A stretch of 35,468 nucleotides of DNA from Folioceros fuciformis (GCA_049999805.1 JBNGIO010006236.1:168164-203631); one strand, 5' to 3'; numbered from the stretch's first letter, positions 3,535-25,965 are shown. Notes: a model not told the origin generated them from the sequence alone. Translations and numbers: made by a program.

Positions 3535-4450
3535 AGCTTCGCTTTCTGAACTCCACCCGCCCCAGCTCAACTCGTGCTTGCCTGCCGCCGCATACGATAA
3601 TCACGGCGTTAGAGCACAGAGATCAGCTCGCACTTGCCTTCGCTGGACCACTCAGTGGCTCCACGGAAGGCTTGCCACATGTAGGAATCTGCAGTGCATC
3701 GGACAAAGTGTCCCGGACAGGACTAGTAGTTGCTCAAGGGATACGTCTCCACGTCAGTTACGTGTTTCCAGTTTAGTCTACATATTTTTACAAACACCTG
3801 ATAAAGGACGCTTCCCCCCTAGCGATGCATCGGCTCTGTTTATGCGGGTGCCTGTGAGATCCAGCGGTGCTGCAAAGCGACAGAGATTGTAAGCTTTCAG
3901 TCTTGCACACCTCCTTGCCCATGCCGACAACTTGGGGCCTGTGAAAGTGTTCAGCATTGTTGGAGCTTAGTTCCCCATTTCCTGACAATCGTGGTCTGTT
4001 TCCAGCTTGCATCTCAGAGAAAAATCACATTCTCGACGAGGTATAACCCTTACGATGAAACCGGTATGGACGACCATAAAATTTTTCATTGCGAGGGGCT
4101 GATGGCTCATCGGGTGTCAGCCAGTAGTCCCTTTCCAAGATCCATGACGTGGGCGATGTTGGGCGCTGGTAGAGGCACAGAGAGCATCAACGCTTGTTAG
4201 CAGTTCCATGGTCTGGTTTAATACCATGGAGGAAGAGGGCTTTTCGTTGCTACCAGAAGTGGGGATGTTCTGGATGTATCAACGATTGGTTACATCCTGT
4301 CTCCCTTGGTCCCTTCATCCTGGTGGCGTGCCTGGACTTGATGGGAAGTCCTGCTCGACGAGCCCACTGGAAACGCTCGCTCCGGGCTGAGAACTGACTT
4401 AACGTCGGCAGTGGTCTTATGGTGCCGACTTATATAAAGTTGGCGGGCCG

Positions 4451-7400
4451 ATGAGGTTTATGTGGATCCTTTTGCAGAGATGCGTCCAGCGGACAGCCCT
4501 GGCAATGGGCAAGCAGCATCCATGGGGTGCTAACTCTGGCTTCCATGCCAACATGTCCGTGAGCTTTCGATCCACGTGGCATTCAGTTCAGGGGAAAGGA
4601 GGCGTACGTGAAGAAAGCGGTCAGTCATGGTCCACGTTGATATCAAGGTACGTCAAGGACGGGAAGCTGCGGGAGAGCATCACAAGTTACAAGCACATGG
4701 TTAACCAGGGCATGAAGCCAGACAAGTACACTATTCTGAACTTACTCAAAGCCTGTGGCAGCTTGGCAGACCTGAGACTTGCAAGATGGATGCACAATGA
4801 AGTCGCGAAGTACAAATGGGATACAGATTTGTTTGTGGGGAATTCCGTAGTTGCGATGTATGCAAAATGTGGAAGTATGACTGATGCTCAGCATGTGTTC
4901 GATACGTTGTGTCACCGCAACGTGGTGTCGTGGAATGCCCTGATTGCAGGTTACGCTAATCAGGAACAAGGGAAGAAGGCGCTGGAGCTCTACTCCCAGA
5001 TGCAACAGGAAGGGGTGAGAGCAAGCATCCGGACGTTTGTCTCAGTGCTGCAAGCTTGTGGCAGCTTAGCAGCTACACTGCATGGCATTGGGGGGCATGT
5101 GAATGCGTTGAAGGGAGATTGTTTAAAACTCGGGACAGAAGTTCATAACGAAATTCTAAGGAGGCATCTACAGGTCGATAATTATGTGGGCAATACTCTC
5201 GTCTATATGTATGCAAACTGTGGAAATCTGGTGGAAGCAGTAAATGTTTTTGACACCTTGTCTCATCGTGATGTAGTGTCATGGACAATATTAATGGCCA
5301 TTTATGCTCAGCAAGGTCAAGGCGAGAAGGCTCTGCAGTTGTATGCCCGAATGCAAGAGGAAGGTGTGAGACCTCAATCTCGAACTTTTGTTAGTGCACT
5401 GAAAGCTTGTAGTAACCTGGCGGCTTCTGAAGAGGCTGTGAAGGTGAATGGAAAACTTGTAAAAGCGCAGTGGCTGAAGAAGGGAAAGGGCATCCATGCC
5501 GATTTCCTTCAGGCTGGCTCTGAAATGGATGTTTATGTTGGCACCACTCTAGTCGACATGTACGCAATATGTGGGAGCATGGTGGATGCACAAAAAGTTT
5601 TTGATTCCATGCCTCGACATGACGCATTGTCATGGACTGCACTGATTCGTGGATATGCTCAGCAAGAGCAGGGAGGAGTCATTGCTGTGCAACTGTTTGC
5701 CGACATGCTCAAAGATGGTGTAGAACCCAACGCTCGGACATTTCTTTGCGTGCTGAAATCCTTGGGAAGCATTGCATCCATGGGCACGGCTTCTCATCTA
5801 ACAGGTCAGTCCCGGACATCAGAGTGCCTGCAGGAAGCCAGGCAGGTTCATGCCAAACTAGTGGAGGCGGGGCTTGGAGTCGACGTTTTTCTGTGCAACA
5901 CGCTTATTGACATGTATGCTAACTGTGGCAGCATGGAGGAGGCTAAGCAAGTCTTTGATGCCATGCCCGAGCGTGATGTTGTTTCATGGACAACAATGAT
6001 AGGAGGCTATGCCCAGCAGGGTCAAGGCGAGACTGCCCTGCAGGTTTTTGCCAAAATGGGGGAGGCAGGTGTCCGACCGAATGGTCGTACTTTTGTCAGC
6101 CTGCTCAAAGCATGTGGGAGCCTTGCAGTCTTTGAGCAAGCCACCATTGTAGAGGGCCTGCTTGTGAAACTGGGCTCCCTGCGAATGTTGAAGGCGATTC
6201 ATGAACAAGTCATAAGAAGCGGTTTTGAATCTGACATCTTTGTTGGTACGAGTCTTCTTGGCATGTATGTGAACTGTGGATCAATGGTGGATGCAGTTCG
6301 CGTGTTTGATGCTCTGCCATATCGAGATGTGGTTTCATGGACAGCAATGATTTCTGGGTATGGACAGCAGGGGCAAGCTGAGACGGCCTTGCAACTCTTT
6401 TCTCGCATGAAGGAGTCAGGAGTTGCACCAGACAGATGGACCTTCACGAGCGTGCTGAAAGCGTGTGGAAGTGAGGCAACCAAGGAGCAAGCTTTGGCTG
6501 TGGATGGGCAGTCAGTCAAAGTGGTGTGCCTGAGCAAGGGCAAGATAATTCATGCTGAAGTCCTGAAGAGAGATTACGGATTGGATGCGTCGGTTGGCAG
6601 CGGTCTTGTTACGATGTACGTCAACTGTGGGAGCATGTCAGACGCTTGGCTTGTGTTTGAATCTTTACCGGAACAGACCGTGGTTTCATGGAATGCTATG
6701 TTAGCTGGATATGCTGAGCAGGACGAGGGTCAAAATACTCTGACCCTGTTCAACCAGATGCTAGAGGCCAACGTCAGGCCTGATAACTGGAGCTTCGTGA
6801 GCACTCTAAGGGCATGTAGCAGCCTGGCTGCCACGGAACAAGCTACCATTTTCAATGGGGAAACTGTGAAACTGGGGTCCCTGCGAAAGGGAAGGTGGGT
6901 ACACTCTCAGGCTGTCAACAGAGGCTTGGAGAGGGATATGTTTGTGGGCACGGCTCTGATTGACATGTATGCAAAGTGTGGGAGCATGAGAGATGCGCAG
7001 CATGTGTTTGACGGATTGCCGCACCGTGATGTGGTATCCTGGAATGCATTAATACTGGGATATGCGCAGCAAATGGATGGCACTAGGGGCCTGAAACTCT
7101 ACGCTGAGATGCAGGCAGAGGGTGTTAGACCAGACGGCTGGACGTTTGTGAGTGTGCTAAAAGCATGTGGCAGCCTTTCAGACACGGAGACAGCCAAGGG
7201 CAGAAAGTTGTTGAAACCCGAGTCCATGCAGAAAGTGAAGGAGATCCAAGCTGAAACCGTGAGAAGAGGACTTGCAAGTAACATCCATGTTGCCAACACT
7301 CTGATTGACACATACGCTGATTGTGGATACATGGAAGATGCGGAGCATGTCTTCGAGTCCCTGGACCGACGTGACGTGGTCTCATGGAATGCGATGATGG

Positions 7401-8353
7401 CAGGCTATGCACAGTGTGAAGAAGGTGCAAAGTCGATGCAGATCTATCTCCAGATGAAGCAGGAAGGCTTGAGACCAAACGAAGCCACCTTTCTGTGTGC
7501 TCTGAAGGCCTGCAGCATGACGGGATCCCTAGATAGCTGCTCACAGATCCATCAAGACTGGACAGAATCGGGACTCCCTTGGAGCACTGATCTGGCCACC
7601 ACCCTGGTCCACGCCTACGGGAAGTGCGGGGACATGGTTCGTGCCCGCACAGTGTTCAACAGCGCTGAGGATCCTAATATCGCTCTTTGGAACTCACTTA
7701 TCACAGGATACTCCGCGCAAGGAGAGTGCCAACAGTGCTTCCAATGTTTGCACGACATCAAGCAGGCGGGACTTCATCCCACCGGCGCCACATACGCTCC
7801 CATCCTTGCTGCGTGCAGCCACGCCGGCCTGGTGGAGGAGGGCCGCAACCACTTCCAGTCCATGACGCAGCATCACGGCATCACTCCAACCATCGAGCAC
7901 TACGGCAGCATGGTCGATCTCTTCGCCCGCGCCGGGCTCTTCGATGACGCCGAAGCCCTGCTCTCCACCATGCCCATGCAGCCTGACCTCCCGATGTGGT
8001 CCTCCCTTCTGGCCGCATGTCGCATGTCCGGCAACATCCCTCTCGCCAGCCGCGCGTTCCAACGCGCTGTCATCCTCGCTCCCTCCTCCAGCTCTCCGTA
8101 CATCCTCATGTCCCAGATCTACGCTCAGGCCGACATGCGAGAGGAAGCCGAGAAGGTGGAGCGTCTAAGACAGCGCACTGGCGCCTGGAAGGAACCCGGA
8201 ACCAGCTGGTTGGAGGACGCCGGTCTCATGCATGCGTTTGTGGTCGGCGATCGCCGGCCGCGATGCCAACGGGATGCGCCTGTCTCCGGGCTCTTCAAAC
8301 TGTCGAATGAAGCGGAAGACACAACCTCGGGGAGGCGAATGAAACGTGGATAA
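4451..8353 (+). CDS. PLS-class pentatricopeptide repeat protein, E+ subclass (PG box, no catalytic DYW), with seven elongated L motifs; putative organellar editing specificity factor
   Basis: Single 1300-aa ORF with 10 P-L-S triplets (VVSWNALIAGY / TFVSVLKAC / LVDMYAKCGSM), the last being P2-L2-S2 (ACSHAGLVEEG, EHYGSMVDLFARAG), then E1, E2 and PGTSWLE...HAFVVGD. Ends before any HxE/CxxC. The start Met is uncertain. Confidence 0.93.
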   Translation: MRFMWILLQRCVQRTALAMGKQHPWGANSGFHANMSVSFRSTWHSVQGKGGVREESGQSWSTLISRYVKDGKLRESITSYKHMVNQGMKPDKYTILNLLKACGSLADLRLARWMHNEVAKYKWDTDLFVGNSVVAMYAKCGSMTDAQHVFDTLCHRNVVSWNALIAGYANQEQGKKALELYSQMQQEGVRASIRTFVSVLQACGSLAATLHGIGGHVNALKGDCLKLGTEVHNEILRRHLQVDNYVGNTLVYMYANCGNLVEAVNVFDTLSHRDVVSWTILMAIYAQQGQGEKALQLYARMQEEGVRPQSRTFVSALKACSNLAASEEAVKVNGKLVKAQWLKKGKGIHADFLQAGSEMDVYVGTTLVDMYAICGSMVDAQKVFDSMPRHDALSWTALIRGYAQQEQGGVIAVQLFADMLKDGVEPNARTFLCVLKSLGSIASMGTASHLTGQSRTSECLQEARQVHAKLVEAGLGVDVFLCNTLIDMYANCGSMEEAKQVFDAMPERDVVSWTTMIGGYAQQGQGETALQVFAKMGEAGVRPNGRTFVSLLKACGSLAVFEQATIVEGLLVKLGSLRMLKAIHEQVIRSGFESDIFVGTSLLGMYVNCGSMVDAVRVFDALPYRDVVSWTAMISGYGQQGQAETALQLFSRMKESGVAPDRWTFTSVLKACGSEATKEQALAVDGQSVKVVCLSKGKIIHAEVLKRDYGLDASVGSGLVTMYVNCGSMSDAWLVFESLPEQTVVSWNAMLAGYAEQDEGQNTLTLFNQMLEANVRPDNWSFVSTLRACSSLAATEQATIFNGETVKLGSLRKGRWVHSQAVNRGLERDMFVGTALIDMYAKCGSMRDAQHVFDGLPHRDVVSWNALILGYAQQMDGTRGLKLYAEMQAEGVRPDGWTFVSVLKACGSLSDTETAKGRKLLKPESMQKVKEIQAETVRRGLASNIHVANTLIDTYADCGYMEDAEHVFESLDRRDVVSWNAMMAGYAQCEEGAKSMQIYLQMKQEGLRPNEATFLCALKACSMTGSLDSCSQIHQDWTESGLPWSTDLATTLVHAYGKCGDMVRARTVFNSAEDPNIALWNSLITGYSAQGECQQCFQCLHDIKQAGLHPTGATYAPILAACSHAGLVEEGRNHFQSMTQHHGITPTIEHYGSMVDLFARAGLFDDAEALLSTMPMQPDLPMWSSLLAACRMSGNIPLASRAFQRAVILAPSSSSPYILMSQIYAQADMREEAEKVERLRQRTGAWKEPGTSWLEDAGLMHAFVVGDRRPRCQRDAPVSGLFKLSNEAEDTTSGRRMKRG

Positions 8354-9384
8354 AGCGCAATTTTTTTTTGTAGTATGTTTTTTCGGGTTTGTGCGGGTTT
8401 CACGACCGGTTCCAGTATGTAGAATGTTGTACCTGCTGTGCGCGCAATGTATGCTCCCCGATGCACGACACGATAGCAAAATATTGAAGCATGGATGAAA
8501 GCCTGGAAAGGATAATGCGGCGATGGTAGGCTGCGAGCCTCCTTGCTGGCGGCGTGGGGCGTTTTTTTCCAACCAAATGAGGCTCATCCACTCTAGGCGG
8601 CGGGTGAATCGTGACGTGGTGCGTAAATATCTCATCCTGGGGGATTTATTGGTTTTATATTGTGCAAGATTCGAGCCCGCCCTGCAAGGTCGGCCACATT
8701 CTCAATGATTGACTGGACTCGGATGTTTCATGTAGCCAAGGTGTTGGGGGAGGAAGGGGAAGAGGAGATGCGGATGGGCCCCATGGTCGATAGTACCGAG
8801 CTCACGATTGGGGTTGCCAGGGGCTGCTCACAACCTGGCCTGCGCCTCCTCCTGTAGCACTCTCTGCCCCGCTGCCGGTTAAACTCGCATCTCCGGGGTT
8901 GGGCAGTCGCCTCCAGCTGCCGCCGTCCAGTCCAGCAGGAGCTGCTGCAGCCTAGCCATGGCTTCCGGGCCACGCTGCAGCGGGTGCAGCACTTCGCTTT
9001 ATAGTAGTCGCCGCTTGGCAGGAGGCACAGGCGGCCGGGTCAGGTAATGCTGTGCAATGCGGGGGGTCGTGGTGCGAATGCAAGCTTGTTTGTTGTTTTG
9101 TGGTGTTGGGTGGTGCTGGAGGCGTGGATTCGAGAATGGGTGGTTGTGGAGGTCTGCATTTGGGCCTGGAAGCTGATCGTGGTATGGCGATGGTTTTCAG
9201 ATTTGGGAGTTCATCGGATGGCCGGACCCGGGTCTGGGTGAACGTTGAGTGAGCGAGTGTTGTGGGAGTGTGACGAGTGGGTGCACATTTCATGGAAACT
9301 AGCAAAAAAAAGGGGTCATGGATGGCTGCAGAATTTCCTTCCAGTAGGTGAAGCATTGGGAGATTGTGGTGAGGAAGGGAGGTG

Positions 9385-12300
9385 ATGGCTAGCGGTGCTT
9401 CCTTTTTGGGGGAGGCTTCGTTCCCGAGTGCTTCTGTTACAGGAGGGGCCACTGCCCATGGACCCTTGCCTACTCGGTCGGGGAGTAGCAGGGGGCGGCG
9501 GGGGGGAAGGATTCATTCCGGGCCTCGTGCTGCGCACGACACGCAGGAGCAGGCTTGGGGCACTTCTGTGCAGCGGGTTGCGCTCTCGGGGTCTGGAAGG
9601 GGAGGTGGATGCGTGGGAGGAGGAGTATATGTGAGGCCGGGGCCGGGGGCTGGAGTGGCCACCGCTCTGCACCAGACCGAGCATTTGCAAGGAGGCCTCA
9701 GTGCCGAGTTTTGTGGGCGGAGATCGACCAGGCTTGTGTCCAAGTTCCACCATGGCCGCCAGAAGTTGTACCTGGGGAAGCATTCGTCGGAAGCAGATGC
9801 GGCCTTGCAGGAGGTTTTCAGCCTACCGTCTTCAGCTGGGACAGGGTCTTTGCTTAACAGGTGGTGTCACAAGCTTGTTGGGCTGGAGGACTTTCCTTAC
9901 ATGTTGCGGGAACTTGGCAATAAAGGGGAGTGGGAGAAGGCGCTGAAGAGTTTCGACTGGATGGTGTCGCAGCAAAGTATCAGGGGTGAGTGGAGCAAGT
10001 TGGCCAGTATTATGATCTCCACTCTTGGGAGGTTGGGTAAGGTGGATCTGGCTCAGAAGGTGTTTGATAAGGCTGTGGCAGCGGGATTCGGGAAGAACGT
10101 GTATGCCTTTTCTGCCCTTGTTAGTGCGTATGGTCGGAGTGGGAGGTGTAGGGAAGCGCTGGATGTGTTTCAGGCCATGAAGAAAGCTGGATGTCCTCCA
10201 AATTTGATCACGTATAACTCAATTATAGATGCCTGTGGGAAGGGTGGTGTGGATCTGAACAAGGCCCTCGAGATCTTTGATGAGATGCAGAGGGAGGGTG
10301 TCGAACCTGATCGCATCACCTTCAATTCTTTGATTGCTGTTTGCAGCCGAGGCAGTCTTTGGGAGGAGTCGCAAAGAGTCTTCGCTGAGATGCAACGACG
10401 AGGGATTGAACAGGATATTTTCACGTATAATACTTTGGTAGATGCCGTTTGCAAGGGTGGCCAGATGGACATCGCAGCCTCCATAGTAGCAACTATGCGG
10501 CAGAAGGGTATTATGCCGAATGTCGTGACCTACAGTACCATGATCGATGGGTATGGAAAAACTGGGTGTTTCGGCGAGGCCATTAGGGTGTATCATGAGA
10601 TGAAAGATGCTGGGATTCGTCCTGACAGAGTTTCGTATAACACGCTGCTAGATATCTATGCCAAGATGGGCATGTTTGAGGAAGCTCTTACTATTTGCGA
10701 GGAGATGGAGAGAGCGGGCTGGAAAACCGACGTTGTTACTTACAACGCTCTCATTGATGCTTACGGGAAGCAGGGCAAGTATATGGAGGCAGCCAATCTC
10801 TTTAGCAAAATGAAGGACGAAGGCCTCGTCCCAAATGTGCTGACATATTCAGCTTTGATTTATGCATTCTCTAAAGGAGGCCTTCACCGAGAGGCCAGGC
10901 AAGTGTTTGAAGAATTCAGAGATGCAGGGTTGAAGCCAGATGTTGTACTCTATAGTGCTTTGATAGACGTTTTCTGTAAAAGTGGTTTAGTAGAGGAAGC
11001 CGTGCAGTTGCTTGAGGAGATGATGGCCGAGGGCATACAGCCCAACATTGTGACTTATAATTCCTTGATCGATGCCTATGGGCGAAGGGGCCAGGTACGT
11101 GCTTGCTTGGAGCCTATTGGCTGATGTGGAGTCAGGATCTGGTTGATGCGAGCTTCCTGTTCTTTGTTTTAGTTTCTCCCTGAAATTTGATCTAGCAGTT
11201 ACATGCTTTTTCGGACAGCGTTTCGCGATCTGCCAGGCAAAACAGGCCTGTGACCGAATATGTCCGTGGCTTTGGGTCGTGCAGGTTGATCATGCTTTGA
11301 GCACAATGGAGAGGATGAGAGGTGTTGGCATCGTCCCAGATAGTCGGACGTACAATTCAGTCATTAATGCACTTGGCAATGATAGTCTTCAGACACCAGA
11401 GCAGGTGCGGGCTAGGAGTGTAGAATTTGACATTCCACCGGTCCCAAGACCCTTGGATTCACAAGGTGGCCAAGGGGACATCTTGGCAGCCGTTCGAGTT
11501 TTCCATGAGATGCAGGAGCTGGGTGTGAAACCAAACGTAGTGACTTTTTCAGCCATTCTCAACGCGTGCAGGTGAGTTCACATTACCCTTTTGCTACGTG
11601 GTGGGTGCAACATGGTGGTAGCTGCAGACTCATCTGTCTTGTGTGACGTATTTGCTTCTCCACTCCCTGTCCCTGCGTGCAGCCGGTGCGCATCATTTGA
11701 AGAGGCATCCCTCTTGCTCGAAGAAATGCGCCTCTTTGACAGCCGTGTCTATGGAGTAGCTCACGGCTTGTTGATGGGACTGCGGGAGCAGGTTTGGCAA
11801 GAAGCCGAGGCCTTGTTTGATCAGATGTTCTTCATGGATCTTGCTACTGCCGGAGCGTTCTACAACGCCCTGACAGACGTCCTGTGGCATTTCGGTCAGG
11901 TAGTGGTTCGGTCTTCGCAGTTGTGCACTCCTCGCCACCGCCGCTAACCTTTCTTCCATAGTTGCTCACTCCCTCACCTGTGTCATGCAGAGAGAGGGAG
12001 CCCAGAAAGTAGTGATAGCAGCAAAACGACGCCAGGTGTGGGCCAATGCATGGTGGAGGTCCGAGCAGCAATTTTGTCTAGATTTGCATCTGATGTCTGT
12101 GGGAGCAGCTCAAGCCATGCTTCACGTCTGGCTCCTGCACATCCGAGGTCTGTTGTTTGAGGGGCATGAGCTACCGAGATTGTTGAGGTACGTCATGAGA
12201 ACTCTGTAATGTCCAGCTTGTTGAGCTGGATGTCCGACCGACTGACACCATCATGACAACTGGCATGGCAGCATTCTTACAGGGTGGGGTAAGCACAGCA

Positions 12301-18400: not shown

Positions 18401-18838
18401 CCCGACACATGTGTAGGCATAGTGGTACGCACTGCCAGCCGATGGGCATCGACTAGCCAGCTCGGCATAGCAGAAAGCTGACAGAGCCGCAGCTATACCA
18501 GCGATGAGAAATGAGAGAGAGAGTGAGGGACCAGTGCGTTCGCGAGAAACTGTTCCTATAAGCACATACACACCAGCTCCAATCGTAGTGCCAATACCTA
18601 GGGGCAACGCCAATGATCCTGTGAGCCAACATCGCATCCACACCAGCAATGCCACTACGACAATCTCCACAGAAGTTCCACGTTGCTCACCAATGGGAAT
18701 CAACTGGGCGACTGTAAGATGCTTAGCCAGCTGGTGACCTGATCGACGAGGAGCAGAAACATGCTTCCGCCTTGTAAGCGTTTCCACTGACAGCGTACCA
18801 AAATTTCTCGCAGCGCGACCCACAACAGTTGTACCCAT
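15462..18838 (-). CDS. Cationic amino acid transporter, CAT2/3/4 (vacuolar) clade, APC superfamily, 14 exons
   Basis: GT-AG exons join in frame to give [111 protein letters not shown]...[18 protein letters not shown]...FYG. Stop TGA at 15464-15462. The 5' end lies next to an assembly gap. Confidence 0.92.
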
Positions 18839-18855
18839 GGCCTGAGGAACTTTGG

Positions 18856-18955
18856 NNNNNNNNNNNNNNNNNNNNNNNNNNNNNNNNNNNNNNNNNNNNN
18901 NNNNNNNNNNNNNNNNNNNNNNNNNNNNNNNNNNNNNNNNNNNNNNNNNNNNNNN
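18856..18955. other. Assembly gap (100 N)
   Basis: Run of exactly 100 n, typical of a placeholder of unknown true size. Confidence 0.99.
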
Positions 18956-19673
18956 CTCAACGTGCCAGCCTCCGCTTTCCTCTGGGCACCTTTACGCAAA
19001 CGATCTTAGCTGGTCGTTGGACAGGAATCCAAGGCGGCACGCAGTGGGAAACCGATCACACCTGCCGTGATCAACTTGGCCACTTCACCGATAACACGAA
19101 CACCTACCACCCAAGCACGTACGTCTTTCCGAAAAGCCGGACAATGAAAGCCGCAGAGTCAAGGCACGGTGTCACTCAGGTTGTTGCACACTCCAATTTT
19201 GCGTGTAGAGGCCCACACGACACAATGATCAACAAGCGCTAGATGTAGCGTCCACAGCCATCGAGCACGCAAGAATCGATGGCTCCACACAATGTCATTT
19301 TTGTCCGGAGTGACAGTCAGAACCGATCGCAGTTTAGATCCAGAAATCCGACTGTTTAAGTCTCTGCCGATTCCTTAGAGCTTGACTAGACTGCTTATAC
19401 TTTCGTGGCCGCTGTACCGAACAATGGCTCATACGTCACGGACACCGTTTTGCATTGGCTGGCCGTGATTGAAGCATATTCCATTAAACACCGGCCTTGA
19501 GTGTGGCTCTCGATACCTGTCACTGTGGCATACGACGTGGGACATAACTTGCGCAACAGGATTCCAACTGAGCCTCATTTGTTGCTCAGAAAATTTAGTA
19601 CATCGAGGTGCGGCACTGTGCTTCCTGTAGTGGAACGACCTACACAAGGAGTAAAATAGTCACGAGGTTTGTC

Positions 19674-21290: not shown

Positions 21291-22143
21291 GCCGCATGGT
21301 CACACCCATGTATTATTTCCCTCATTGTCTTCATCTCCTTCACTCCATGCATCACTGTCATTCCCATCTTCTTCCAACTTGTTATATAGTTGAAAAAGTA
21401 TAAATAGTTGATAATGAGGATGATTCCCTTTTTATGTTGAATGTCGTTTTGGAGGTGTTCAGTAGAATAATGCAATGAGAGGAGAGGGTAAGTGCCAACC
21501 AGTGCCCACTCTTTGGATTACCATGATGTCGAGGACCATAGCCATCCAAGAAAGAGTCGAGACCAGTCACATGCAAAGGTGGTAATTGGAGGACAGAGCC
21601 GGGTGCAAGGCAAAAGAAATACTATTATAAAAAATTATAAGAGATGGTAGAACTTTATTTTTTGCACAGCTTAGATTAAATTCAAGTCATAATGGATGAG
21701 GGGAGGCTGGATGAATCTACTTGGGAAGAAGACCCTTGACAAGCATGAAACAAAATGAAGGAGACTATACTAGTTAAGCTGGAGAATTTTGGGTCCGCCA
21801 TCGCACATTACTCTACATGCTCGGATTCAGGGAAGACAAATTATCTATGGAGATCGTATCCAAGGGTAGAGTAGAGGAGGGTGTATTGCCATTGGTGCGT
21901 GCGAGTGGGGGCAACATGTGTGCAGTAGGACAATCTTATTAAGGTGTGAGAACTACGATATTCACATGTTTAAAAGTCTACTGGTTTGCGTTAACTGCAT
22001 TCAGGTTTAGGCTGGTCGCAGGCAGCTGGTATGGTGTGTCATATACAGTCCCTGGGCAGCCTGCCAGATTCATGGCTGTATGACTATGTGGTCGACATAT
22101 GTAGTCTGATGTTAGACTCTTTCTCCGACAGCAGTGCCTAACC

Positions 22144-25100
22144 ATGGCTGCTGTATTGCAACCGGACCCGTCGAGGACCCAACAAATGGGTGGGTGTGCA
22201 GCGATTCTAGTAGGAGCTCCCGCTCACCTCACTGTAGGGAATCAAGCCCTGGGAAACGAAGCCTCCAGGTGCAGCACTGGTAGGAGCCAAGTATTGCCAC
22301 TTCCGATAGAATGTGTGGGTGGGGTTGGGATTTCCGACGATGGTCGTTGTCAGGAGCAGGAACACTCGTGGCAGCAACTTTTTCTGGATTCTACCATGCG
22401 GCGGGACAACAGACGAGATAAAAAGAGCTCGCTTTGTCCTCACTTCCGGCGTAAAGGGTCCAGAGAGGTCTTGAGCGGAAACAAGTGGAAGCCAGCTTGG
22501 GGTGATGAGCAGCACATTTGCTTTGACATGGAGATGGGTCATGGTGCCTCTCATTCCAAGTCGACACCGTGGGATCAGTGCCAACCTGGCAGGTGTGAAG
22601 GATCGGAAATTGACGTGATGGCTCGAACAGTGAGTATGCTGTGTCAGCAGGGGAAGCTTCCTGAGGCCGTTGGAGCCCTGGAATCTTTGGCGCAGACAGA
22701 CTCTGCCATTTCACACTCTCTGTTTTACGCTGTGCTGAAACTGTGTACAACGAAGAAGGATTTCGTTGTGGGGCGACGGGTTCATGATCTCACTGTCAAA
22801 CTTGGGTACGATTTAAATGCATACTTGGGGAACCATATCTTGCGCATGTATGCATGTGGAGGTAGGTTAGAGGAGGCCATGGATGTGTTCACGAGAGTGC
22901 GCAAACCGAATACCTTCATGTGGTTTTCCATAATTTCTGCACATGTTAAGCACGGGAGATCTAATGAGGCCATACAACTCTACCGCGAGATGCGTAGGTC
23001 AGGAGTCAAGGCGGATGCTCACGTGTTTGCAGCTGCCCTTCAAGCTTGTGCATTTGCTGCCGACTTGGTATCTGGCAGAAGACTGCACTGTGATGTGTTG
23101 CACAGTGGCATCCCTCTTAACTTATTTGTTGGCACATGCCTGGTGGACATGTATGCGAAATGTGGGGAGCTGGAAGATGCACGCAGGGTGTTTGACAGCT
23201 TGGTCTCAAAAAATGTGGTAACGTGGACGGCCCTGCTTGCTGGGTACTCAAATCATGGGTTTGGCCATGACGCTCTTGTTCTGTATGGACAAATGGAGCT
23301 GGAGGGCCTTACTGTGGCTGATCATGTGACGTTTTCTTGCCTTCTAAAGGCCTGTGCAAGCGCTGGAGCCTTACAGAAGGGCAGGCAGGTTCACGCACAG
23401 ATTGTGAAAAGGGGGCAGCTGCATGACATAGTGCTGGGAAACTGCCTGGTGGACATGTATGCAAAATGCGGTGAACTGAAAGATGCACATCAGGTCTTTG
23501 ACAGCTTGGCTACGAAGGACGTGGTGACATGGACGGTGTTGATTGCTGGTTATGTCCAGCAAGGGCTAGGACATGAGGCGCTTGTGTTGTATGGACAAAT
23601 GGAGCAGGAGGGGTTGATTTTGGCTAACCATGTTACTTTTGCTGCCCTTCTGATGGCGTGTGCAACCAGTGGTGCTTTACAGAAGGGCAGGCAGCTGCAC
23701 TCAAAGATTGTTGAAAGACGACTGCTGGATGACATTGTGGTGGCCACGTGCCTGGTGGACATGTATGTAAAATGTGGTGCACTGGAAGATGCACGCCAGG
23801 TTTTTGACTGTTTGACCACGAAGAATGCAGTGACATGGACGGCGCTGATTGGTGGGTATGCACAGCAAGGACTCGGCCAAGAAGCCCTTACTGTGTATGA
23901 ACAAATGGAGGAGGAGGGCCTCATTTTGGCTGATGATATTACATTTGCTTGCCTTCTAAAGGCCTGTGCAAGCACTGGTGCCTTACAGAAAGGCAGACAG
24001 CTGCACTCGCAGATTTTTGAACGAAGTCTGTTGGATAATACAGTGGTGGGCAACTGCCTGGTGGACATGTATGCAAAATGTGGTGAACTGGAAGATGCAC
24101 GCCGAGTTTTTGACAGCTTGGCCTCAAAGAATGTGGTGACATGGAATGCCCTGATTACTGGGTATGCACAGCAAGGATTTGGCCAGGAGGCCCTCGTTGT
24201 ATACGGACAAATGGAGAAGGTGGGCCTCATTTTGGCTGACAAAGTTACATTTGCTTGCCTTCTGAAGGCCTGTGCAAGCACCGGTGCCTTGCAAAAGGGC
24301 AGGCAGCTGCACTCGCAGATCGTGGAAAGAGAACTGTTGGATCAGGACGTGTTGTGCACCTGCCTGGTGGACATGTATGCAAAGTGTGGTGAACTGGAAG
24401 ATGCACGTCAAGTTTTTGACAGCTTGGCCACAAAGAACGTGGTGACATGGAATGCCCTGATTGCCGGGTATGCACAGCAGGGACTCAGCCAAGAGGCGCT
24501 GGTTGTGTATGGACAAATGGAGGAGGAGGGCCTTATTTTGGCTGACAATGTTACCTTTGCTTCCCTTCTGAAGGCCTGTGGAAGCACTGGTGCCTTACAA
24601 AAGGGCAGGCAGCTGCACTCACTAATTGTCGAAAGAGGACTGCTGGATGACGTAGTGGTGGGCACTTGCCTGGTGGACATGTATGCGAAATGTGGTGAAC
24701 TGGAAGACGCACGCCAGGTTTTTGATAGCTTGGCGTCGAAGAATGTCGTGACGTGGAATGCCATGATATCTGGGTATGCAAAGCAAGGACTTGGCCAAGA
24801 GGCACTTGGTTTGTATGGACAAATGGAGGAGGTGGGCCTCATTGAGGCTGACGAAGTTACTCTGGCTTGCCTTGTGAAGGCCTGTGCCAGCACCGGTGCC
24901 TTACAGAAGGGCAGGCAGCTGCACTCGCAGATTGTGGAAACAGGACTGTGGGATCACGAAGTGTTGTGCACCTGCCTGGTGGACATGTATGCAAAATGTG
25001 GTGAACTCAAAGATGCACGTCACGTCTTCGACAGCATGAACACGAAGAACGTAGTGACGTGGACCGCTTTGATATCTGGGTACGGTACTTGTGATGAAGG

Positions 25101-25965
25101 TCACAAGGCACTAGCTTGTTTTGAGGAGATGTTAGCTGCCGGTATTCAGCCCAACGACGCAACCTTTACTTGCCTTTTAGTGGCATGCAGTCATGAGGGA
25201 CTGGTGCACGAGGGTCGCAAGGTCTTAGATTCCATGGCTGAAAAGTATGGCATCAACCCCACGCGCGCGCACTACAACTGCATGATTGATCTTCTTGGGC
25301 GTGCGGGCCATTTGGATGAGGCACAAGAGATGCTACTATCACGCGAGGGCCGAAGTGATGTTGTGGGTTTGACGTCGTTGTTGAACGCCAGCAAAAGTCA
25401 CGGGGATATAGGGAGAGCGATGTGGTGTTTTGAAAACATTGTCAGGCTGGATCCCAAGCATGCGCCAGCTTATGTCCTCATGGCCAATGCCTGTGCGGAT
25501 GCAGGTAGGTGGACCGATGTAGACAGGATTGAAACAGAGAGAAGGGCAGCAGGGGCTAACAAGAAATCAGCAGTGGCGACCATTGAGGTGAACCAGCAGG
25601 TCCATAAATTTCAGGTAGGAGCAACGAGAGAGGATATTGCGCTTAAGGTAGAGAGCACGAATGCACGTGTGAAGCAGGAAGGAGGCCACGTACCTCACAC
25701 GAACTTGGTGTTGAAGGCAGTGAGTGAGAAGGAAAAGGAGGATGCGCTTTGTGGGCATGCTGAGAAGTTAGCGCTTGCGTTTGGTCTCTTGAAGACTCCG
25801 GGTGGGACACCTCTGGTGGTAACGAAGAATCTACGCATGTGCAGTGATTGCCACAGTTCCACGGAGATCATGTCAAGGCTTGAAGGAAGAGACATTGTTG
25901 TAAGGGATGGGTATCGCGTGCATCGCTTCGTAGGTGGCTCTTGCAGTTGCAAAGGGCGATCGTAA
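22144..25965 (+). CDS. PLS-class PPR protein with E1-E2 and variant DYW:KP (GRP-type) domain; candidate U-to-C organellar RNA editing factor
   Basis: Single 1273-aa ORF with 9 PLS triplets, E1 and E2. KKSAVATIEV replaces the PG box. Zinc motifs HAEKLA (25756) and CSDC (25840). Ends HRFVGGSCSCKGRS* rather than ...DYW*. Confidence 0.92.
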   Translation: MAAVLQPDPSRTQQMGGCAAILVGAPAHLTVGNQALGNEASRCSTGRSQVLPLPIECVGGVGISDDGRCQEQEHSWQQLFLDSTMRRDNRRDKKSSLCPHFRRKGSREVLSGNKWKPAWGDEQHICFDMEMGHGASHSKSTPWDQCQPGRCEGSEIDVMARTVSMLCQQGKLPEAVGALESLAQTDSAISHSLFYAVLKLCTTKKDFVVGRRVHDLTVKLGYDLNAYLGNHILRMYACGGRLEEAMDVFTRVRKPNTFMWFSIISAHVKHGRSNEAIQLYREMRRSGVKADAHVFAAALQACAFAADLVSGRRLHCDVLHSGIPLNLFVGTCLVDMYAKCGELEDARRVFDSLVSKNVVTWTALLAGYSNHGFGHDALVLYGQMELEGLTVADHVTFSCLLKACASAGALQKGRQVHAQIVKRGQLHDIVLGNCLVDMYAKCGELKDAHQVFDSLATKDVVTWTVLIAGYVQQGLGHEALVLYGQMEQEGLILANHVTFAALLMACATSGALQKGRQLHSKIVERRLLDDIVVATCLVDMYVKCGALEDARQVFDCLTTKNAVTWTALIGGYAQQGLGQEALTVYEQMEEEGLILADDITFACLLKACASTGALQKGRQLHSQIFERSLLDNTVVGNCLVDMYAKCGELEDARRVFDSLASKNVVTWNALITGYAQQGFGQEALVVYGQMEKVGLILADKVTFACLLKACASTGALQKGRQLHSQIVERELLDQDVLCTCLVDMYAKCGELEDARQVFDSLATKNVVTWNALIAGYAQQGLSQEALVVYGQMEEEGLILADNVTFASLLKACGSTGALQKGRQLHSLIVERGLLDDVVVGTCLVDMYAKCGELEDARQVFDSLASKNVVTWNAMISGYAKQGLGQEALGLYGQMEEVGLIEADEVTLACLVKACASTGALQKGRQLHSQIVETGLWDHEVLCTCLVDMYAKCGELKDARHVFDSMNTKNVVTWTALISGYGTCDEGHKALACFEEMLAAGIQPNDATFTCLLVACSHEGLVHEGRKVLDSMAEKYGINPTRAHYNCMIDLLGRAGHLDEAQEMLLSREGRSDVVGLTSLLNASKSHGDIGRAMWCFENIVRLDPKHAPAYVLMANACADAGRWTDVDRIETERRAAGANKKSAVATIEVNQQVHKFQVGATREDIALKVESTNARVKQEGGHVPHTNLVLKAVSEKEKEDALCGHAEKLALAFGLLKTPGGTPLVVTKNLRMCSDCHSSTEIMSRLEGRDIVVRDGYRVHRFVGGSCSCKGRS
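23125..25050 (+). repeat. Coding tandem array of 306-bp (102-aa) S-P-L units, about 6.3 copies
   Basis: Anchor TGCCTGGTGGACATGTATG recurs at 23137, 23443, 23749, 24055, 24361, 24667 and 24973, an exact 306 period. Confidence 0.97.

Follow-up and report, generated by a model that had tools for sequence, protein, structure and literature searches.

A GRP-type DYW:KP protein with putative U-to-C editing activity and a predicted target in plastid rps3

The window (the whole stretch of DNA analysed, 35,468 nucleotides) is gene-dense plant nuclear DNA that encodes a new PPR protein of the GRP/DYW:KP family found in hornworts. Judged from its domains and nearest relatives, this protein is very probably a PPR editing factor encoded in the nucleus and imported into an organelle, from the GRP subgroup of hornwort DYW:KP proteins, with putative U-to-C activity. 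Its PPR array points to nucleotide 568 of plastid rps3 as the most likely target, a prediction given somewhat less than even weight. A wider proposal built on it is more tentative still: a natural stand-alone GRP-type editor may remove a genomic stop at Arg190 of rps3, one protein serving one site, with S motifs on wobble bases, L motifs reading by their last residue, and a subset of editors carrying an N-terminal PDF-like nucleic-acid-binding motif. The family and its matching to editing sites have already been published and hornworts possess very many such proteins, so that by itself the gene is nothing out of the ordinary. Its long, clean array and named candidate site nevertheless make this natural protein a ready test case for natural U-to-C editing. 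If the prediction is true, a ribosomal protein would depend on this single gene.

The gene, its DYW:KP domain and its relatives

An intact open frame of 1,286 codons (22105-25965, plus strand) contains Pfam matches to PPR, E-motif and DYW_deaminase. Both ends of the gene are matched without differences by contigs of two sequencing runs of organism A. The encoded protein has an N-terminal extension of at least 60 residues, followed by the motif series L-S-P-L, six S-P-L units, S, P2, L2, S2, E1, E2 and a DYW-type domain, which is the (P1L1S1)n-P2L2S2-E1-E2-DYW order of the PLS class. The features are as follows.

22144..25965, plus strand: single-exon open reading frame of PLS-E1-E2-DYW:KP (GRP) type; first ATG at 22144, next likely start at 22618, stop TAA at 25963-25965
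22357..22524, plus strand: N-terminal motif of about 55 amino acids, degenerate in the window protein and common to three other DYW:KP proteins
22714..23121, plus strand: four upstream motifs, L (YN) at 22714, S (NN) at 22819, P (FD) at 22912 and L (AN) at 23017, for positions -29 to -26
23122..24957, plus strand: six tandem 306-nt S-P-L units with the S/P pairs TN/TD, ND/TN, TN/TD, NN/ND, TN/ND and TN/ND, for positions -25 to -8
24958..25359, plus strand: last S (TN, -7), P2 (TN, -6), L2 (TT, -5) and S2 (ND, -4), from the motif parse
25360..25563, plus strand: E1 (TH) and E2 motifs, from the motif parse
25564..25962, plus strand: DYW:KP domain of 133 amino acids, with KS for KP, HAE at 25756-25764, Lys88 at 25825-25827, CSDC at 25840-25851 and a GRS end

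The DYW:KP domain carries HAE, rather than HSE, at residues 65-67 of its HxE(x)nCxxC core and CSDC at 93-96. Its length falls within the 132-133 residues of the type, Lys88 is present, and the numbering agrees with positions 64 and 88 as used in the accessible text of PMC11845758. The C-terminus reads GRS, a GRP-like triplet. In a quick IQ-TREE analysis of 72 of the 112 domains, for which the careful search was unfinished, the window domain groups with the GRP-ending domains of P0003, P0007, P0008 and P0018 (SH-aLRT 99), and the HSE/DYW branch is separate. Both the triplet and the clade therefore place it in the GRP variant despite the GRS end, and HAE, Lys88 and the position in the tree bear out the preliminary description's suggestion of a putative U-to-C editor. 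It is from these family traits that the protein is assigned to hornworts. The domain opens with KS (25564-25569) where its relatives have KP; it retains the lysine and the AxAxIEV context after it. Because paralog pieces from all four sequencing runs have a proline codon at this site, the KS change is particular to the window gene.

According to the available parts of PMC9478123, GRP is the hornwort variant of DYW:KP, and the designer GRP proteins KP2 and KP3 performed U-to-C editing, and no C-to-U editing, in Escherichia coli and HEK293T cells. A 2025 study found Lys88 to be required for designer KP activity (PMC11845758, in part). An equivalent lysine also occurs in C-to-U domains, so Lys88 is necessary for, and not diagnostic of, the direction of editing.

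These observations bear on an improbable alternative, in which the gene has no current U-to-C target, being a paralog of a large young family that is orphaned, inactive, or active in C-to-U or in both directions. The KS and GRS deviations and the shared lysine are compatible with it, as is the report that designer KP6 performed both reactions (PMC9478123, in part). The consulted portion of PMC11845758 calls the activity of natural DYW:KP proteins unknown, with editing demonstrated for consensus-built proteins only. The family is large, since paralog contig pieces 88-99% alike number in the thousands (4,765 in X1 and 49,693 in X4). They swamp the sequencing reads over the array, where the code residues of an ortholog are not separable. 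No ortholog was found, the best relative being 66% identical over the C-terminal region, and none of 23 parsed relatives has the same code. Against decay or a change of direction stand the intact 1,286-codon frame, the presence of every catalytic residue, the restriction of the code positions in all six units to T/N and N/D, and the lack of C-to-U activity in the designer GRP proteins mentioned above.

The N-terminal motif also occurs in P0003, P0018 and P0020 and, weakly, in the fern protein P0010, giving five of the 121 PPR proteins searched, four of these five being seeds of the search. It has no match in Pfam or the Atlas. P0003 and P0020 contain Pro-Asp-Phe within it, and the window protein has PHF instead. 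The motif may resemble the single-stranded DNA-binding PDF motif of OSB proteins. The latter comprises about 50 amino acids with a Pro-Asp-Phe signature (PMC6963530; PMC4166229).

Other genes in the window include a second long PLS-E PPR gene (4403-8353, plus strand) with long L-motif insertions and no DYW domain, whose product might depend on a DYW protein supplied in trans. A P-class PPR gene (9373-12209, plus strand), which is presumably GUN1-like, has an apparent C-terminal SMR-type region and is preceded by a short AP2-like stretch. A run of about 100 N lies within an amino-acid permease-like gene at approximately 18800-18960.

The PPR array and its code

The preliminary description listed 15 pairs of code residues between 23122 and 25359 and derived from them a target pattern with S2 aligned at -4. 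The parse of the open reading frame returned the same series (S TN, P TD, S ND, P TN, S TN, P TD, S NN, P ND, S TN, P ND, S TN, P ND, S TN, P2 TN, S2 ND), and a second, independent parser read the first 14 pairs as AGnUAnAGnYUnAUnAUnAAn. The statement that all pairs are canonical holds for this stretch; upstream of it lie four motifs that had been left out, one of which, the P motif at 22912, has the non-canonical pair FD.

A fully canonical stretch had been regarded as unusual, and this view did not survive comparison with relatives. Among 36 HAE-type relatives, 210 of 239 P and S motifs (88%) are canonical and 15 proteins are wholly so; at this rate, 14 canonical pairs in 14 have a probability of about 0.16. 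The canonical stretch is not beyond chance expectation. The four types TN, TD, ND and NN by themselves account for 134 of the relatives' 239 motifs, and their sole use is less common. The S-P-L units are 75-87% identical to one another and are therefore tandem copies of one unit rather than independent motifs. Within the six regular 306-nt units, the true length of the L motifs is 35 amino acids. All six P1 motifs (23215-24852) have 36 residues, not 35, with a tail of the type LI(L/E)A(D/N), a mark of tandem copying.

The pattern proved informative enough for a shortlist of targets, as had been proposed. Proxy plastid DNA totalling 735,689 bases, with C accepted at U positions, contained no exact match, one match with a single mismatch and 36 sites with up to two mismatches. 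The window itself contains two matches with three mismatches, compared to a chance mean of 1.38. Viral contigs yielded more than 118 exact matches, which shows that the pattern cannot be called rare when a sequence set is large and AT-rich.

Plastid rps3 as the candidate target

The proxies were 85 plastid loci from metagenomes, each taken around chlL; they belong to algae, mosses, ferns and conifers, and none was recognised as hornwort. A search with a chlL motif for hornwort organelle DNA found none in viral contigs and one 568-base contaminant in GTDB. This contaminant (L204:1-568) is a plant plastid chlL fragment that forms a contig of its own within the assembly of a Pseudomonas genome. 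Two other metagenome plastid contigs, L124 and L157, contain fern-type chlL with an ACG start and an in-frame stop, both visible editing sites. Viral contigs, 401 Pseudomonadota genomes, the contaminated genome, plasmids and phages yielded no land-plant rps3 DNA. For the scan, amino-acid classes were derived from the pattern for every codon frame; edits at position 3 would be silent. It was confined to protein-coding sequence from part of the plastid gene set.

The preliminary description had placed the L motifs on wobble bases and the edit at codon position 2, which corresponds to the peptide class [SR][YQH][SR][LF][IM][IM][NK]x[PSTA]. Once this frame is assumed, the geometry fits, with S2 at -4, and position-2 edits dominate C-to-U editing. 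Across 180,329 proxy codons, however, the class was never matched in full. Its single one-mismatch match lies in a non-conserved insertion of algal rpoA, and the best DNA matches in this frame have three mismatches at non-wobble positions. The fern U-to-C sites listed in the accessible part of PMC12548569 also speak against it: among 27 listed rows for fern mitochondrial rps3 in Table S5, all 12 U-to-C sites fall at codon position 1, and 10 of them remove stops. Genes outside the scan could still harbour a match, yet an edit at position 2 appears improbable, and the inference of this frame was probably wrong.

The frame with the edit at position 1, typical of U-to-C edits that remove stops as in the fern sites above, gave several near matches in the proxies and the best conserved fit. 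A full class match is expected by chance 0.27 times per 25,000 plastid codons, or 0.16 times if a Gln or Arg end is required; the proxy open reading frames held three full class matches, at two unrelated peptides. Algal Rps3 is one residue off the class, with His for Gln, where Rps3 of land-plant type has Gln. The plastid Rps3 peptide EGRVPLQT(I/L/V)R conforms fully to the position-1 class in 28 of 28 sequences, which were selected by motif from 116 new matches, are mostly bryophyte and streptophyte (mosses, liverworts and Takakia are named) and include no hornwort. The same peptide is found in the uS3c chain of the spinach-type chloroplast ribosome, EGRVPLQTIRAKIDY. Its conserved Arg is codon 190 in all six bryophyte Rps3 sequences checked, and the candidate edited base is the first of this codon, nucleotide 568.

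All 15 pairs are compatible with the conserved Rps3 peptide. Two ND motifs (-15 and -9) would face C in rps3, the second choice of ND; the literal regular expression of the preliminary description needs T at both positions and misses this candidate unless both bases are also pre-edited. The rps3 DNA of two algae has five and six mismatches in 15. The last residue of each L motif was unused in the search. Read as D for G or U and as N or T for A or C, a rule that extends the code and was made in this analysis, it agrees at five of six testable rps3 positions (p 0.15), the second codon bases being fixed by the peptide. This is the best agreement among seven candidate genes, the others reaching zero to four of six. 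Nothing about L motifs in relation to wobble positions was found in the available literature, including the parts of PMC6029061 consulted.

Among the other candidates, which were set aside or placed below rps3, an edit in rbcL would break a Tyr, and edits in ccsA, rpoA or atpA would be silent on Leu. The land-plant versions of ndhA, ycf1, rps15 and atpB have 4-10 mismatches, and for ycf4 and rps4 the fit is confined to algae. These cases also bear on an alternative that is unlikely, though more probable than those above, in which the protein is an active U-to-C editor of a different site. The edit could fall at the first codon position of a different plastid gene, in a divergent gene (ycf1, ycf2 and matK are examples), in a mitochondrial gene, in an intron or in a UTR. 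Its best proxy is ndhJ, where ETLQIK-S/P would change from Ser to Pro; in locus L193 this site has two mismatches in 15 and T at the edited position, but it would need two adjacent transversions at -16 and -15. Algal ycf4 and rps4 likewise have two mismatches, a fit that does not extend beyond algae. Natural factors are known to tolerate mismatches, PPR_98 being an example in the accessible text of PMC6029061, and the scan covered a minority of organelle sequence space.

With rps3 as the favoured target, a mechanism can be proposed in which the nuclear-encoded protein would be imported into plastids, where its P and S repeats would each bind one base upstream of a uridine, with S2 at -4. The array would lie on the codons for E-G-R-V-P-L-Q-T such that P motifs face first, L motifs second and S motifs third positions, and E1 would face the first base of the codon that follows. 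The zinc-binding DYW:KP domain, using Lys88 as in the designer proteins, could then aminate the U of UGA to C. The edit at Arg190 is probably UGA to CGA, which would convert a genomic stop and restore the conserved arginine. For this scheme we infer T at nucleotide 568 in this hornwort, the third-position bases, plastid import and editing itself. Removal of stops is described as a main role of hornwort U-to-C editing in the consulted portion of PMC12548569. The label rps3eC568 is absent from the Salviniales supplement, and the 109 plastid edits of Leiosporoceros in the accessible supplement of PMC6082510 are all C-to-U; both concern other lineages.

Relation to known editing systems

The matching of the family to U-to-C sites is credited to Gerke 2020 (cited in the available parts of PMC9478123 and PMC10030945), so the pairing of the window protein with rps3 may already stand in its tables. 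More generally, the site or the protein may already be listed in published supplements. At the level of titles and listings, no natural U-to-C factor for rps3 was found named in the literature. No relevant 'rps3eC' label was found there either, and one supplement of Li 2020 has no rps3 entry.

The closest known system is the hornwort GRP variant of DYW:KP (Gerke et al., 2020; Gutmann et al., 2020; via the accessible parts of PMC9478123 and PMC12548569), which shares with the window protein the PLS array, P2L2S2, E1, E2 and a 133-residue HAE domain. For hornwort GRP proteins as a class, these sources report agreement between the PPR code and U-to-C sites. The window protein differs in having KS for KP, GRS for GRP, and six near-identical units with P motifs of 36 residues. 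The designer editors KP2 and KP3 (PMC9478123; PMC11845758; both in part) resemble it in their GRP-type domain, with HAE, Lys88 and G at position 64, and in the placing of S2 at -4. They are, however, consensus constructs directed against Arabidopsis rpoA, whereas the window protein is natural, has an array of its own and is known here from sequence. With the DYW:PG C-to-U factors (OTP86, DYW1 and synthetic PPR-DYW; PDB 7o4e, 7w86 and 9kfx), it has in common the zinc-binding HxE...CxxC core and the lysine of KNLR. In contrast to these factors, the window domain has no PG box, HAE in place of HSE, a four-residue gap near its N-terminus and no DYW ending, and it belongs to a separate branch of the tree.
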